64,000 nt of DNA from a virus (Duplodnaviria; Caudoviricetes), in IMG/VR virus record IMGVR_UViG_3300021400_000134; one strand, 5' to 3'. A program made the position numbers and the translations under genes. The notes beneath the pieces were generated by a model. It made no database searches. It saw only the letters and a program-made list of their open reading frames with translations, and was not told the origin of the DNA. The first letter of the stretch is position 1; each line of letters opens with the position of its first letter. Below are positions 32,785 through 60,409 of this stretch, piece by piece.

Positions 32785-34716
32785 ATGGCTTTAAAAGGGA
32801 TTGATATCAGCAATTGGCAAAACGGAATTAACTTATCTACTGTCAAGGCTGATTTCGTAATCATCAAATCTTCTGAAGGTATTGGATGGACAGACCCAGC
32901 TTTTAAACAATTATTCGCTGCTGCGAAAAAAACAAGTAAAAAATTGGGGGTTTATCATTTCGCGCGACCAACCGCTGATAACGATCCAATTAAAGAAGCT
33001 GAGAGTTTTGTTAACATTATTAAGCCAGAAGGTGTTATTGGTAAAGCTTTACTTGTTCTTGACTGGGAGGCTGAAAATCAGCATAACACAGCTTGGGCAA
33101 AATCTTGGTTAGATAAAGTATATGCGCTAACTGGTGTAAAACCTATGATTTACATGAGTGAAAGTGTGGTTAATGCTTATAACTGGGATGCAGTTGCTAA
33201 CGCTGGATATGAGCTCTGAGTCGCCAAGTATTGAGACAACGCACCTGATTATAATTATGATATGTCTAATGCTGGCAATAAGCCATCAATTAGTCATTGG
33301 AAAAATTATAAAATGTGGCAATGGACTTCTACTGGAAGATTAGATGGTTATGATGGCAATTTAGATTGCAACGAGTTCTATGGAACAGCTGCGGATTGGG
33401 ATAAATTAGTAAATGCCGCAGGAAAGAAAGAAGAACCAAAAAAGGAAGAAACAACTGAAACAACAACAATTGAAATTCCAGGATATTCAACAAATGTAGT
33501 CATGAGTCCAACAGATTGGTTCAATATGACTTATGGTCATAGCTATGATATTGATGGCTACTATGGTGCCCAGTGCTGGGATTACTTTGCATATTTCGTA
33601 CAATATACTGGCATTGGTGTAAGCACATACTGTGCATTAACTCACTATGTTGGTGACTTATGGACATTAAAAGACCAGTATGGTTATTCAGAACATTTTG
33701 AATATATTACAAATCCTAATGCATTACAAAATGGTGACTGGTTAATCTGGCCTCAGGGCTCTTCTAACCCATTATCACATGTCGCAATGTATTGGAATGG
33801 CCAGATTTTAGGCCAGAACCAGGGTGGAGCAAGAATTGTTACTTTGGCTAACGCATATTTCGACATTGCTGGTGCATTAAGATGGAAAGGTTGGAATGGC
33901 GGAGGCGGTTCTCCAGCAGAGAAAATCAATCTTAAGAATTACACTGATGCGGAATTAGCTCGCATGGTTATTGCTGGCAGATTCGGAAATGGCGATACAA
34001 GAAAGAAACTTCTTGGAACTCGTTATGATGGCGTTCAGGATATGGTTAACCGCATCTTAAATGGTGAAGCAGTAGATCTAAAAGACAATGAAACAGTCGC
34101 ACGCGAAGTCATCCAGGGCCTATGGGGCAATGGAGACGACCGTTATAACAGATTAACTGCTGCTGGATATAACTATGATGCAGTTCAGAATCTTGTAAAT
34201 CAAATCTTAAATGGCGGCGGAGGTTCTTCAAAGAAATCTATTGATGAAATTGCTCAAGAAGTTCTTGCCGGCATCTGAGGTAATGGTGATGACCGTTATA
34301 ACGCATTAACAAATGCTGGTTATGACTACAACGCAGTTCAGGCTCGTGTAAATGAATTATTAGGATATGGCACAGCCAAAGATTCTAATGAAACAGTCGC
34401 TGACCAAGTAATCGCAGGATTATGAGGAAATGGCGATGACCGCTACAATAGATTGACTGCTGCTGGATATGATTACAACACAATCCAGGCAATTGTTAAT
34501 CAGAAACTTGGATATGGCGGTGGTGCAAGCATTGGTGTTGGTTCTAATATTCGCATTGGCTACAACGCTACTGACTTAAACAGCGGAACATTCTATGCTC
34601 CATTTGTTTATCAGAATGTATACCAGGTATTTGAAATCAGCGGCCGCAGAGTAGTATTTGGCACTAATGGAACAGTAATTGGTGCTACCGATATTGGTAA
34701 TGTATCATTAGCATAA
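32785..34716 (+). CDS. Endolysin: GH25 muramidase + CHAP-like domain + Cpl-7 (CW_7) repeats (643 aa, 4 TGA=Trp)
   Basis: GIDISNWQ, LVLDWE, MWQWTS (GH25); DGYYGAQCWD...SHVA...GQN (CHAP); A.EVI.GLWGNGDDR repeats; TGA at 33217, 33232, 34276, 34423. Confidence 0.92.
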
Positions 34717-34729
34717 GGAGGGTTTTAGC

Positions 34730-35059
34730 ATGGACAGTTTTTTCTCACTAATCGCTATTGCAACACTGATTGAAGCCCTTATTTCTTATGGTAAAACTAT
34801 TGTCAATAAAGGCACAATCCAATGGCAAATTATTTTAGCGTTTATTATTGGAATTGTCTTTTGCTACGACACTGGTTTAAACTTCTTTGCAATGTTGGGC
34901 TTAAGCGAACAGTGGCCTATTATTGGGACATTAGCGACTGCTGTTACATTGTCTCGTGGTTCAAATTATATGTTTGAGTTTTATAATCAACTAACCACTT
35001 GGCGCAAACAAGCAACAGAACAAGCAAATAATAATAACAACGGGGTTAGTTCTATTTAG
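34730..35059 (+). CDS. Holin-like membrane protein
   Basis: Follows the lysin; ~3 hydrophobic segments; LSRGSNY motif. Confidence 0.75.
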   Translation: MDSFFSLIAIATLIEALISYGKTIVNKGTIQWQIILAFIIGIVFCYDTGLNFFAMLGLSEQWPIIGTLATAVTLSRGSNYMFEFYNQLTTWRKQATEQANNNNNGVSSI

Positions 35060-35076
35060 AACTAACCTCTTTTTTT
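35043..35076 (+). terminator. Intrinsic terminator ending the lysis operon
   Basis: GGTTAGTTCTA-TT-TAGAACTAACC then CTTTTTTT. Confidence 0.8.
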
Positions 35077-35078
35077 GT

Positions 35079-35107
35079 TTGACTTTTCTGGAAAAATTTT
35101 ATATAAT
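35079..35107 (+). promoter_or_regulatory. SigmaA-type promoter upstream of the Hsp20/tRNA unit
   Basis: TTGACT-17nt-TATAAT. Confidence 0.75.
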
Positions 35108-35131: not shown

Positions 35132-35308
35132 ATGAAGCTATATTTAAAAGATTATGAACAGTTAAAAACGGTAGAGAACTTCTTGTTCAGATTTATATAT
35201 TCAAAGTCTTTTACCTTACAAATTTTTATAGAAGATACTAATGACCAATTTAATTATGAAACAATTCATAACGATTTAGCTGGTGGATTAGTTCTTGTAA
35301 CTTTTTAG
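35132..35308 (+). CDS. Small hypothetical protein (58 aa)
   Basis: RBS AAGGAG; start MKLYLK lies downstream of the promoter. Confidence 0.6.
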   Translation: MKLYLKDYEQLKTVENFLFRFIYSKSFTLQIFIEDTNDQFNYETIHNDLAGGLVLVTF

Positions 35309-35322
35309 GAGGTATTTTTATT

Positions 35323-35694
35323 ATGATGTTTGATTATGATTCTTTTTTCAATTGGGATAAACCCGCTTACACTTTTAGTCGTTCAGTACATGATATGCAT
35401 CCCTATTCTATTAAAACATTGGATGACAGGGTAGTATTGGTTCATAATATTGTCGGTGTTAAAGAAGACGATATTAAGGTTGATATTGTTAATAAAGATG
35501 GTAGAGACCAGCTTGTTATCGAGGGTGTAACTCATAACGATTTGCTGAACTATGATTACAAAATTAATTCAAGATTCGATATTAAAGCAGATATGTTTAA
35601 GAATGTAACTTATTCTGTTGAAGATGGTTTGCTATATATCAATCTATTTAAGAAAGAACCAGAAGCAACTAAATTAATAGTTACGAAAGCCTAG
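35323..35694 (+). CDS. Hsp20/alpha-crystallin-like small heat-shock protein
   Basis: IVGVKEDDIKVDI...LVIEG...YSVEDGLLYINL. Confidence 0.75.
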   Translation: MMFDYDSFFNWDKPAYTFSRSVHDMHPYSIKTLDDRVVLVHNIVGVKEDDIKVDIVNKDGRDQLVIEGVTHNDLLNYDYKINSRFDIKADMFKNVTYSVEDGLLYINLFKKEPEATKLIVTKA

Positions 35695-35728
35695 AGAATT
35701 TTTTAAAGAAGTTCTCTACTCTATTTAT

Positions 35729-36006
35729 AGGGGTATGGTGTAATTGGGAACACTACGGTCTTCAACCGGGAGATGTTAATCCTTAAATTGGTGCGTTGCG
35801 GTAGGGATGCCGCAAATGAAGGTGATGATATCGGTGAACCCTAAACGAAAGCATGGGAATACCGAGGGAACGAAAGGCCCGTAGAGACTAGATAATCACC
35901 CGGCTAGAACAGTCGAAGATATAGTCCAGACTACAAACAGAAATGGTGGCGAAAGTCATAGTAGTACGCAACACCGTCTATTCAGGTTCGAACCCTGATA
36001 CCCCTG
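35729..36006 (+). tRNA. trnW: tRNA-Trp(UCA), UGA-decoding; exons 35729-35762 and 35969-36006
   Basis: Acceptor AGGGGTA/TACCCCT, discriminator G, D-stem GTGT/ACAC, spliced anticodon arm ACGGT-CTTCAAC-ACCGT, 4-nt variable loop, T-arm TCAGG-TTCGAAC-CCTGA; no encoded CCA. Confidence 0.92.
35763..35968 (+). ncRNA. Group I self-splicing intron (206 nt, ORF-less, IC3-like) inserted after U34 of the anticodon
   Basis: 5' exon ends in U, intron ends in G. P1 GTCTT/GAGAT with U-G at splice site, P3 GGTGAT/ATCACC, P4 TCGGT/ACCGA, P7 GACTA/TAGTC, conserved GTAGAGACTA and AAGATATAGTCC elements, GNRA-capped hairpins. Confidence 0.9.
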
Positions 36007-36864: not shown

Positions 36865-37467
36865 TTAATTTTCATTCTCCTTATTTTTTTTGTTTTCATG
36901 TGCTCGCATATCTTTTGAGGTAACATGTAGTTCGAAATCTTCGAAATCATCTTCAAGGTCATTATTAATAGGCAAAGCTAATGTTTTATTATAATATAAA
37001 TCACCTTGGCTATTACCACCTAATGCATTATAAATTTTGTGTAGTTCTGAAAGTTGATCAAACTGATTCTGTGTCATAGAACCTTGGCTTAAATACTTTT
37101 TGCAAGCGTTAATGAGCTGATATCTGTAGAACAAAAGATTTTGTTCTCTTAGAAGTAAGAAATCTTTTTCAACATTTCCCAAATGCTCAACCGCCTCTCA
37201 ATATTTCTTTTGCCAATAGTCGAAAGTAGATTTAGCCTCTAATTGAAATTCATTCATAGAAACAGTAATTTCTTTTCTAAAGGCATCACTGGATTCTTTG
37301 ATAATACTTTCCATGGTATCTCTCAATTTCTGTTCGTCGTAGCTCTTAGCCTTTTCAGTAGTTTGCTCACCTTTCTTTACAAGGGAATCTCATAAATATT
37401 TGATAAGAAAACCACCAACAGCGACCAGTATATAACTCAATAGTGCATCCGCGCTTATTGTCATCAT
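36865..37467 (-). CDS. Membrane-anchored, possibly lysis-related protein (200 aa, 2 TGA=Trp)
   Basis: RBS AGGAGG; MMTISADALLSYILVAVGGFLIKYL-W; TGA at 37390-37392 and 37198-37200; C-terminal IYNALGGNS motif. Confidence 0.7.
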
Positions 37468-37489
37468 AATTCATCCCCCTCCTGTTGTC

Positions 37490-37533
37490 TTATAAATTAA
37501 AAAAGGTATTAGATACCTTTTTTTAATTTGACC
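37490..37533 (-). promoter_or_regulatory. Putative phage-specific promoter motif, copy 6 (coincides with an inverted repeat)
   Basis: GGTCAA-ATTAAA-AAAA-18nt-TAATTTATA on - strand. Confidence 0.5.
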
Positions 37534-38032
37534 AATCAAAGCCTTCTTCTTTTACAATTGCGGAACTACCCTTGCCGCACACATGAGTCCCGATGCATAT
37601 AGCATCGCATTCATCTTGTGTCGCTTTAACATTATATGTATTGATAACAAATTGTTGAGCATTTCGCTTTTGGTCGGGTCGGCTACGACCCCTAATTTTT
37701 AATGTTGATTTCCAAGTTGAAGAAGGCACTATGACAAAATTTTTATTAAGCTCTACAGCAGTCTCAAGAACTACACCAAATACATTTGCTAATATTTTAA
37801 AGGTTTTCACATTGTTTCCAACTGAAGATTGCAGTTGTATATCTTCAAAGGCAATTGTATCTATTTCTCACTCTTGGACTTTTGCGATAATAAAGTTTCT
37901 AATTTCTACTAATCTTTCGCCAACTTCTTCTTGATTAGTAGTTAAATGACCTCATTGTTTTAATTCCCCGTTTATAAAGACCGCTCATCCTGATACGCGA
38001 CTGGCCTGGTCTAATGCCAATATATTACTCAT
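37523..38032 (-). CDS. RuvC-like Holliday junction resolvase (169 aa, 3 TGA=Trp)
   Basis: ILALDQASRVSG-W-AV, IAFED, PSSTWK, DECDAICIG; TGA at 37985, 37952, 37868. Confidence 0.85.
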
Positions 38033-59167: not shown

Positions 59168-59417
59168 AACCCTTACAATGACAACCTATTATGTCTAAAA
59201 ATTCATCAATATCATCAATGTAAGCATTTTCTTTATTATATTCTGCGGTTTGTAAGAAATCTAAATAAGAAATAATATTAATATCATACCCGTAAGCACG
59301 AGCCTTTACTAACATTGCTTCTGGATTTCTACAAACTAATGTGGCGCTTTCTTGCTGGCATAAAGCCATTAATTTTTTTGTTTTTCCGGAACCCGGTTCT
59401 CCAATAATTTTTACCAT
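59151..59417 (-). CDS. Small P-loop protein
   Basis: GEPGSGKT and YIDD in 88 aa. Confidence 0.7.
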   Translation of the reverse strand: MVKIIGEPGSGKTKKLMALCQQESATLVCRNPEAMLVKARAYGYDINIISYLDFLQTAEYNKENAYIDDIDEFLDIIGCHCKGFGGNV

Positions 59418-60409
59418 TAATTTCTATTCCCCTGGAGTGTATTATAACCCCAATCTGTACTGCTATAAAAATCAATTCAATATCTTTCACGTTCGTTTAA
59501 TGCTTCTCTCTCGCATTCTTCCAGTATTTCATACATAAATGCTTCTGGACCAGAAGTCTTCATTTCTGTATAAAATCTATTATTTGAGGAAGCAATACCG
59601 AGACCTGCTTTTATATGATCTCTTAAACGGTTTCGTAAATCTACTGATTGGCCTATATAGCACTGCCCTGAATTTATATTTGTAATTTTATAAATGCCAC
59701 AATGAGTTTGTCCAGTAGGAGTTAATCTACCTAATAAATCCATTGTAGGTCTCTTGTAGTAAAGTTCCCAAATAATTTTATTTATTGGTTCAGGGTCTTT
59801 ATTTAATTTCTTTGCTACATCTTTTAACATTGAAATATCTTCAATATCTTCTTCTGAAACCTTTATTTTATAGTAATCTTTTGACTGTTCATCAAGCATA
59901 CGTCTTTTATCTGCGGCGATTGCGGAATCTGCTTTTTCTTTTAGAATTGCAAGTTCGTTGGTGACAGTTTCTAATTCCAACTTTTTTTCGTTAATCGTAT
60001 CAGTAAAATACTTGGTGCTTTCTTCAAGAGTTTTTAGATATTCATCCTTATGTTCTTTCTCTGCTTTTTGATAGTGATACATTGCTATTTCCGCAGATTG
60101 AGACATTTTCTCTTGCATTAAATCATAAGATTTCTTGTAGATTTCTTCTGTTGCGGCTGTTGCCTGTTTGCTTATTGTGTCAATATCAGCATATAATGAG
60201 CTCTTGTGGCGCTCTAATGCGGCGGTTTCAGTTTCCGCAGAAGCAACTTCCGCATTTAGTTTGGCTATTTCATCTTGTAAACTTGAATTTTCAATTTTTA
60301 ATCTATTGTTCTTTTGGACTATTTCTTCATCAACTTTATGTTTTGGATATAAATAAATGATAATTCCAATTAATAGTCCAATTATAGCCGCACAAACTCA
60401 AATCATCAT
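59417..60409 (-). CDS. Membrane anchor + coiled coil + C-terminal GIY-YIG nuclease (330 aa, 2 TGA=Trp)
   Basis: RBS AAGGAG; MMI-W-VCAAIIGLLIGIIIY; CGIYKITN...YIGQS...ERERY-W-IDFY...WGYN; TAATG coupling at 59417. Confidence 0.8.

Follow-up and report, generated by a model that had tools for sequence, protein, structure and literature searches.

How does a phage that writes tryptophan as UGA in its late genes make the tRNA that reads this codon, and is the ribozyme interrupting the candidate gene a switch between genetic codes or a tolerated passenger? The locus lies in a 64,000-nucleotide stretch of Caudoviricetes DNA (IMG/VR record IMGVR_UViG_3300021400_000134), analysed here as a whole and referred to as the window. 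The first-pass annotation had recognised in it a UGA-decoding tRNA-Trp gene whose anticodon is split by a group I ribozyme, and had proposed that self-splicing acts as a timer or metabolic sensor that flips the cell from code 11 to code 4. It had also expected tRNA finders to overlook the gene, and they do: ARAGORN with default settings calls no tRNA in the unspliced window, and an Rfam search of the same 64 kb at gathering thresholds returns no RNA family.

The use of two codes within the window is evident from its open reading frames. ORF coverage rises from 0.74 under code 11 to 0.93 under code 4, and the gain from TGA readthrough is confined almost wholly to the late-gene stretch between 16 and 40 kb. 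The 27 ORFs on the late strand contain 120 in-frame TGA and 93 TGG codons, as against 8 TGA and 92 TGG in the 29 ORFs on the early strand, which include a DnaE-type polymerase, NrdD, RecJ and NAD ligase; 26 of these 29 have no TGA at all. The endolysin illustrates what the codon stands for: its residue W145 is encoded by TGA and aligns with a conserved Trp of the solved GH25 lysozymes 4kru and 4jz5, and of its CW_7 repeats one has TGG and two have TGA for the Trp. The late genes read TGA as Trp and therefore need a UGA decoder, as had been suggested from the tail, endolysin, resolvase and endonuclease genes. All eight early-strand TGA codons are found in three genes (36865-37539, 37523-38032 and 59417-60409, minus strand), one of which encodes a RuvC-like resolvase.

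It is conceivable that the host itself uses code 4 and that the phage tRNA merely supplements a normal tRNA-Trp(UCA). Both the low G+C content of the window (34%) and the fact that none of its genes ends in TGA would agree with such a host. The uneven distribution of TGA makes this highly unlikely, since a code-4 host would not impose the observed partition, in which most early-strand genes avoid TGA while using TGG freely; the Gram-positive cell-wall modules of the endolysin also speak against it. The host is probably a low-G+C, Gram-positive bacterium.

The candidate decoder is encoded on the plus strand as a 5' half ending in GGUCUU, an insert of 206 nt, and a 3' half that begins with CAACACCG. 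In-silico splicing predicts the ligated junction GGUCUU/CAACACCG, and the joined segments 35729-35762 and 35969-36006 form a cloverleaf of 72 nt, which ARAGORN accepts as a tRNA of 73 nt with anticodon UCA. The earlier proposal that a complete cloverleaf appears once 35763-35968 is removed is thereby confirmed to the exact coordinate, with the insert placed between U34 and C35 of the anticodon loop (Table 1). The spliced tRNA has an acceptor stem of 7 bp that begins with A1-U72, G2-C71 and G3-C70, and its discriminator is G73, all as claimed before; CCA is not encoded. The same four elements constitute the Trp identity set in the E. coli and B. subtilis TrpRS literature. Similarity searches do not assign the tRNA on their own: the annotated phage tRNAs closest to the tRNA of an intronless relative (see below) are Trp and "Arg", so identity by similarity is ambiguous, and a search of E. 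coli tRNAs with the same query gave no match. All four tRNA stems covary when 16 intron-split pre-tRNAs taken from viral contigs are aligned. At the level of sequence, the tRNA(UCA) is supported as genuine, with acceptor features like those of tRNA-Trp.

With introns allowed, ARAGORN itself offers another junction, which would yield tRNA-Cys(GCA). Cleavage after U33 with G as the first base of exon 2 and cleavage after U34 with C as that base are indistinguishable from the cloverleaf alone, and the choice depends on the ends of the intron. Under the Cys(GCA) junction the last intron base would be variable (C here, A in relatives), whereas the terminal G and the U-G wobble that go with the UCA junction are invariant across the relatives. 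In addition, the tRNA carries discriminator G73 rather than the U73 of bacterial tRNA-Cys, and the genome requires a UGA decoder. The Cys junction was ruled out by the terminal-G rule, and its likelihood is close to nil.

Table 1. Coordinates of the split tRNA(UCA) gene, the helices of its intron and the neighbouring features in the window.
Feature	Position	Strand	Remarks
Endolysin (GH25, amidase/CHAP-like, CW_7 repeats)	32785-34716	+	4 in-frame TGA
Terminator-like hairpin followed by T run	35042-35069	+	12-pair stem; ends the lysis/late block that precedes the tRNA operon
Sigma-70-type promoter-like site	35079-35107	+	TTGACT-17-TATAAT, 11/12; matching site in 11/12 syntenic relatives
123-aa ORF directly upstream of tRNA	35323-35694	+	TGA-free; synteny marker
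tRNA exon 1	35729-35762	+	Acceptor 5' strand, D arm, anticodon stem 5' strand, C32 U33 U34
P1, CUU/CAA (35760-35765) with guide UUGGUG (35788-35793)	35760-35793	+	U35762-G35791 is the wobble at the 5' splice site
Group I intron	35763-35968	+	206 nt, no ORF; ends with G35968, the terminal (omega) G
Extra hairpin within P1 loop	35768-35784	+	Contains GAGAU; covaries
P2 hairpin	35796-35815	+	5/6 pairs compensatory
P3	35821-35826 with 35895-35900	+	6/6 pairs compensatory; encloses P4, P5 and P6
P4	35831-35835 with 35861-35865	+	Invariant
P5	35839-35841 with 35855-35857	+	
P6	35866-35868 with 35878-35880	+	
P7	35884 and 35886-35889 with 35923-35927	+	Bulged A35885; crosses P3, encloses P8
P8	35901-35905 with 35911-35915	+	4/5 pairs compensatory
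P9	35930-35934 with 35961-35965	+	
P9a, inner hairpin of P9	35946-35950 with 35955-35959	+	GAAA loop; 5/5 pairs compensatory
tRNA exon 2	35969-36006	+	C35 A36, remaining anticodon arm, 4-nt variable loop, T arm, acceptor 3' strand, G36006 discriminator

To what class does the insert belong? The general Rfam group I model RF00028 matches it end to end (35753-35949), though only when the 286-nt segment is searched, and at 18.4 bits (E 0.013) against a gathering score of 50; taken alone, this match is weak and no more than suggestive. The Rfam group I seed includes no bacterial introns, and a cutoff of 18-20 bits has been applied to tRNA introns (Williams 2020, bioRxiv 10.1101/2020.01.27.920355). 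We read the sub-gathering score as reflecting the limits of the model; it does not, in our view, disqualify the insert as a group I intron. Folding the intron by energy alone recovers P2-P6, P8 and P9a, but the z-score of -1.2 is uninformative by itself.

Because the Rfam match is weak, the strong evidence is the comparative alignment. We tested the helix assignment on the 16 pre-tRNAs mentioned above and found that 93-95% of cells in P1-P9 and the tRNA stems can pair, compared to 27-45% in slid controls (93.2% against 34-45% for the 16), and that 50 of the 77 pairs change on both sides. P7 is nearly invariant, with a single pair going from C-G to G-C or G-U in four relatives. The terminal G directly precedes exon 2 in all twenty aligned cores. 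A covariance model built from these 20 cores (R1) matches the window exactly once, at 35818-35968, with 170 bits and an E-value of 4e-35. The insert is, on this comparative evidence, confirmed as a group I intron belonging to the IC3-like, anticodon-loop class of tRNA introns. Comparison of 16-20 relatives bears out most of the core described in the first-pass annotation, namely P3, P4, P7, the U-G pair and the terminal G; the exception is its P1.

That P1 had been drawn as GUCUU pairing with GAGAU. We rejected this pairing, since it is not conserved in contigs L024, L028 and L029, where the segment containing GAGAU corresponds to a covarying hairpin inside the P1 loop (GAU/AUC in the window, UGAA/UUCA in L024, CUGAAG/CUUCGG in L028 and CGC/GCG in L029). 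The conserved guide is instead the UUGGUG listed in Table 1. Its G35791 forms the U(-1)-G pair with U34 and its G35793 pairs with C32, each in 16 of 16 aligned pre-tRNAs, and its UUG pairs with CAA, the first three bases of the intron. A change in the first base of the intron is matched in the guide: the pair is C-G in introns of tRNA(UCA) and A-U in those of tRNA-Leu. In the clade of the window, P1 has a U-U mismatch beside the wobble pair and is weak on the exon side. Exon 2 also starts with CAA, and the same UUG can pair with it to form P10; the CAAC repeat found at both junctions is explained by P1 and P10 sharing one guide. A further hairpin between CGG of exon 1 and CCG of the intron was considered and discarded for want of comparative support, as it is kept neither in L024 nor in L028.

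Is the split gene the only source of a UGA decoder? ARAGORN finds no intronless tRNA(UCA) elsewhere in the 64-kb window. We extended the search to four near-complete viral genomes of 116-176 kb that carry an intron-split tRNA(UCA), two of which (G002 and G003) are syntenic with the window. Each has 12-30 ordinary tRNAs, none of them UCA, and the Rfam tRNA model misses the split tRNA(UCA) gene in all four. A second, intronless tRNA(UCA), named at the outset as a finding that would count against the idea, is thus present neither in the window nor in these four genomes. In three of them model R1 detects exactly one such intron, that in tRNA(UCA), among 22-30 tRNAs; in the fourth it adds one intron in tRNA-Leu(UAA) and one weak match. 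This near-confinement of the intron to the suppressor in the four genomes is non-random and is not explained by a passenger reading alone.

The gene could also be dead, that is, a relic whose intron no longer splices while UGA is read by another tRNA or a host factor. Such a decoder could lie outside the window, which is part of a genome, and the weak P1 and low Rfam score of the intron would suit a decayed ribozyme. However, the core helices, U(-1), the terminal G and the four tRNA stems are all kept by compensatory change in diverged relatives, a pattern that implies purifying selection, and no other UCA tRNA exists in the four near-complete genomes with a split gene. We regard a dead gene as very unlikely.

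The position of the tRNA gene suggests how it might be expressed. Downstream of the terminator-like hairpin lies a promoter-like site that is likely, from its sequence and place, to mark the start of a small TGA-free operon ending with the tRNA; in the relatives the matching sites occur in the same relative place and mostly have an extended -10. Host RNA polymerase could read this operon. The 123-aa ORF directly upstream of the tRNA has no Pfam match at E 0.001, and for this reason an Hsp20-like identity considered for it was dropped. An inverted repeat, TAGAGAA...TTCTCTAC (35694-35719), overlaps the stop codon of this ORF and ends 9 nt before the 5' end of the tRNA. Every syntenic relative keeps the arms, whether or not its tRNA is interrupted, and the reverse complement GTAGAGAAC occurs at 35171-35179 in the operon leader, 540 nt upstream; elsewhere in the window the motif does not occur beyond chance. 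The repeat may be a processing or binding site.

Whether the intron is needed for the code change can be judged from relatives of the window. Using the 123-aa ORF as a synteny marker, we collected 18 related loci (83-100% identity) and inspected the slot downstream of the marker gene. In this survey of intron conservation, of the kind proposed with the original claim, 14 of the 18 loci have an intron-split tRNA(UCA), and the remaining four have an uninterrupted one (three near-identical genes of 72 nt and one of 95 nt with a long extra arm). All 18 show the gain in code-4 ORF coverage expected for TGA recoding. One intronless phage, with a record of 138 kb, gives no match to the R1 intron model and contains TGA-rich ORFs, for example one of 169 aa, equal in length to the RuvC-like gene of the window. 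In a tree built from the flanking gene, alleles without the intron occupy two well-separated places, which requires at least two changes of intron state, by loss or gain. Replacement of the whole tRNA gene is an alternative route to the same pattern, as the tRNA bodies also differ.

Variation within the slot itself is considerable. Some 30-40 nt past the marker in loci L059-L076, the tRNA(UCA) bodies differ strongly while the flanking gene is 83-89% identical; at least five unrelated-looking sets of acceptor, D and T arms are present, and in L069 the variable arm is long. Such variation suggests that entire tRNA cassettes have been replaced in the slot more than once. A scan for the intronless allele with the exact anticodon-arm pattern returned only chance matches or unrelated long-arm tRNAs.

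An exact scan of IMG/VR with exon 1 recovered three contigs, one of them near-identical and the other two sharing the tRNA and intron but with about 116 nt inserted into the P6 loop of the intron. A structured P6-loop insertion of about 116-120 nt without an ORF is seen at L002:3334-3728, L003:2524-2918 and L020 (near 262-317), and is common to two otherwise different tRNA(UCA) introns. A broader scan with the core motif (GTAGAGACTAGA ... AGATATAGTCC) identified 40 viral contigs. In about 20 of them the intron interrupts a split tRNA(UCA), and all of these gain ORF coverage under code 4. Others have it in tRNA-Leu(UAA) or tRNA-Ile(UAU), always between U34 and N35, and a few in protein genes. 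Six contigs with the L015-type tRNA-Leu(UAA) intron show no code-4 coverage gain. The tRNA-Ile(UAU) genes split between U34 and A35 by this intron family are at L026:1940-2223 and L036:523-809. Core motifs outside tRNA genes, apparently in protein-coding sequence, occur in the very AT-rich contigs L031, L039, L043 and L051 and in L025, L030, L042 and L044; L051 has a large gain of ORF coverage under code 4. In other recoded contigs, several split tRNA(UCA) genes (L046:11894-12183, L027:5477-6142, L034:5826-6489, L045 and L041/L049) would keep a long extra arm once spliced; its length of about 20-25 nt is not usual among tRNAs of the Trp type. On these sequences, the family is best read as one that colonises the site between U34 and N35 of phage tRNA genes (UCA, Leu-UAA and Ile-UAU).

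Searches beyond these contigs were negative. The pattern of the exon-1 end plus guide gave 104 matches in bacterial and archaeal genomes, with no R1 intron among the 80 matches listed, so that at this stringency neither a cellular copy nor a hint of the host emerged, and a nucleotide search of public phage records with the tRNA region and 12 kb around it found no match.

Sister introns also point to mobility. Those of L027, L034 and L040, all on recoded contigs, encode ORFs of 149-161 aa that match the PD-(D/E)XK endonuclease family PF11645 and its solved member 2ost, which we take to be I-Ssp6803I, the PD-(D/E)XK homing endonuclease of the Synechocystis tRNA-fMet group I intron. The 206-nt intron of the window contains no homing endonuclease ORF. 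The endonuclease ORF of L034 (5994-6443, minus strand) has TGA for Trp at codon 23, where L027 has TGG, so its translation would depend on the tRNA that its own intron interrupts.

These comparisons bear directly on the proposed splicing-gated switch, in which the ribozyme step has been selected to delay the UGA decoder for the TGA-rich late genes or to make it conditional on guanosine, Mg2+ or folding. Several observations are in its favour: the suppressor alone bears the intron among the 22-30 tRNAs of three near-complete genomes, the intron is kept in most syntenic relatives, a conserved host-type operon promoter would make a post-transcriptional delay useful, and the conserved U-U mismatch in P1 might slow the first step. 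Against this stand the same-slot intronless alleles in recoded sister phages, the repeated change of intron state, the occurrence of the same intron family on non-recoded contigs, in their ordinary Leu and Ile tRNAs, and the homing endonucleases of sister introns. Moreover, the tRNA group I introns of Anabaena and Azoarcus are known to splice fast and constitutively. In view of the four intronless yet TGA-recoded relatives, the changes of intron state and the endonuclease genes, the timer or metabolic sensor is not supported; we consider a selected gate unlikely. A wider form of the same idea, that the intron is kept on suppressors for a useful ribozyme step which either delays or conditions the onset of UGA decoding after infection (for instance by its need for guanosine or Mg2+, or by slow folding with the weakened P1) or silences the suppressor outside the productive cycle, is equally doubtful. 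If it were true, restriction of the intron to the suppressor would reflect selection and not only target-site preference.

Intronless recoded sisters, at least two changes of state and sister endonucleases together make the pattern of a mobile, dispensable intron. Judging from the sequences compared, the intron appears dispensable for the code change, though it may have a modulating effect. The explanation that we consider probable, with good though not full confidence, is that the locus encodes the opal-suppressor tRNA of a large TGA=Trp phage, interrupted between U34 and C35 by an ORF-less group I intron whose splicing would be obligatory and which would be a tolerated mobile element and not a timer.

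Under this explanation, the precursor would be transcribed, probably from the promoter-like site of Table 1, together with the small TGA-free ORFs. By homology and conserved anatomy, the intron would then fold, its guide UUGG would pair with CUU/CAA as P1, and guanosine would attack after U34; the same guide would subsequently hold the CAA of exon 2 as P10 while G35968 is displaced and the exons are ligated. The product would be trimmed, and CCA would be added by a host enzyme. Charging would most likely be by host TrpRS, given A1-U72, G2-C71, G3-C70 and G73 and the alignment of TGA with Trp, and the charged tRNA would read UGA in competition with RF2. Since the UGA decoder would be made only after removal of the intron, splicing would be obligatory for the code change in this phage, and the change of genetic code in these phages would pass through a ribozyme reaction.

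Among known systems, the closest parallel is the cyanobacterial and plastid tRNA-Leu(UAA) intron (IC3), which resembles the intron of the window in its site between U34 and N35, its rule of U(-1) and terminal G and its small ORF-less architecture. The parallel with insertion after U34 had been pointed out before and is reinforced by direct alignment: tRNA-Leu(UAA) introns of viral contigs align with the intron of the window at 61% mean column identity and share P3-P9. Here, however, the interrupted gene is a phage stop-codon suppressor tRNA(UCA) and not a cellular Leu tRNA, and the guide UUGGUG, the U-U beside the wobble and the extra P1-loop hairpin are distinctive. The Synechocystis tRNA-fMet intron belongs to the same anticodon-loop family, some members of which carry a PD-(D/E)XK endonuclease; the copy in the window lacks an ORF, and the insertion position and the tRNA differ. 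Anticodon-loop group I introns are long established in bacterial and plastid tRNAs. A survey of bacterial genomes raised the number of site classes of tRNA group I introns from 4 to 21 and named the Leu case Leu.3Ug (CUU/a...g/AAAA) (Williams 2020, bioRxiv 10.1101/2020.01.27.920355). According to a 2014 review, every phage group I intron known by that time lay in a protein gene (PMC3984707). The "enigmatic" tRNA introns of Lak megaphages (Devoto et al., bioRxiv 10.1101/356790) likewise lie within tRNA genes of alternative-code phages, but they interrupt the tRNAs for Phe, Gly, Thr and Tyr, were predicted with eukaryote settings and received no group I classification, whereas the present intron is a group I intron supported by covariation and resides in the suppressor itself.

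Recoded phages such as the crAss-like, Lak and Agate phages, among others, are reported to have uninterrupted suppressors, with 60-65% of genomes seemingly without one (bioRxiv 10.1101/2021.08.26.457843; PMC7886860). Suppressor tRNAs have been found in only about 35-40% of recoded phage genomes, and undetectable tRNAs have been suspected (bioRxiv 10.1101/2021.08.26.457843; PMC7886860; PMC12386605). The phage described here has much in common with them, being a large phage with TGA=Trp in structural and lysis genes, standard-code replication genes and its own tRNA(UCA), and its layout and size class resemble those of the TGA-recoded "Agate" phages; it differs from the published cases in that the suppressor gene is hidden by a ribozyme intron. 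A full-text literature search, with subscription journals largely outside its reach, turned up no account of a phage suppressor tRNA interrupted by a group I intron. Intron-split suppressors may partly explain the apparent lack of a suppressor tRNA in recoded phages, and intron-aware tRNA searches could recover part of those "missing", to the benefit of code calling and gene prediction in phages from gut and rumen. The family found here shows that group I introns colonise phage tRNA genes as well, including copies whose homing endonuclease would need the suppressor, and a Leu.3Ug-type intron in the suppressor tRNA on which the alternative code of a phage depends is a new arrangement of a known kind of intron.
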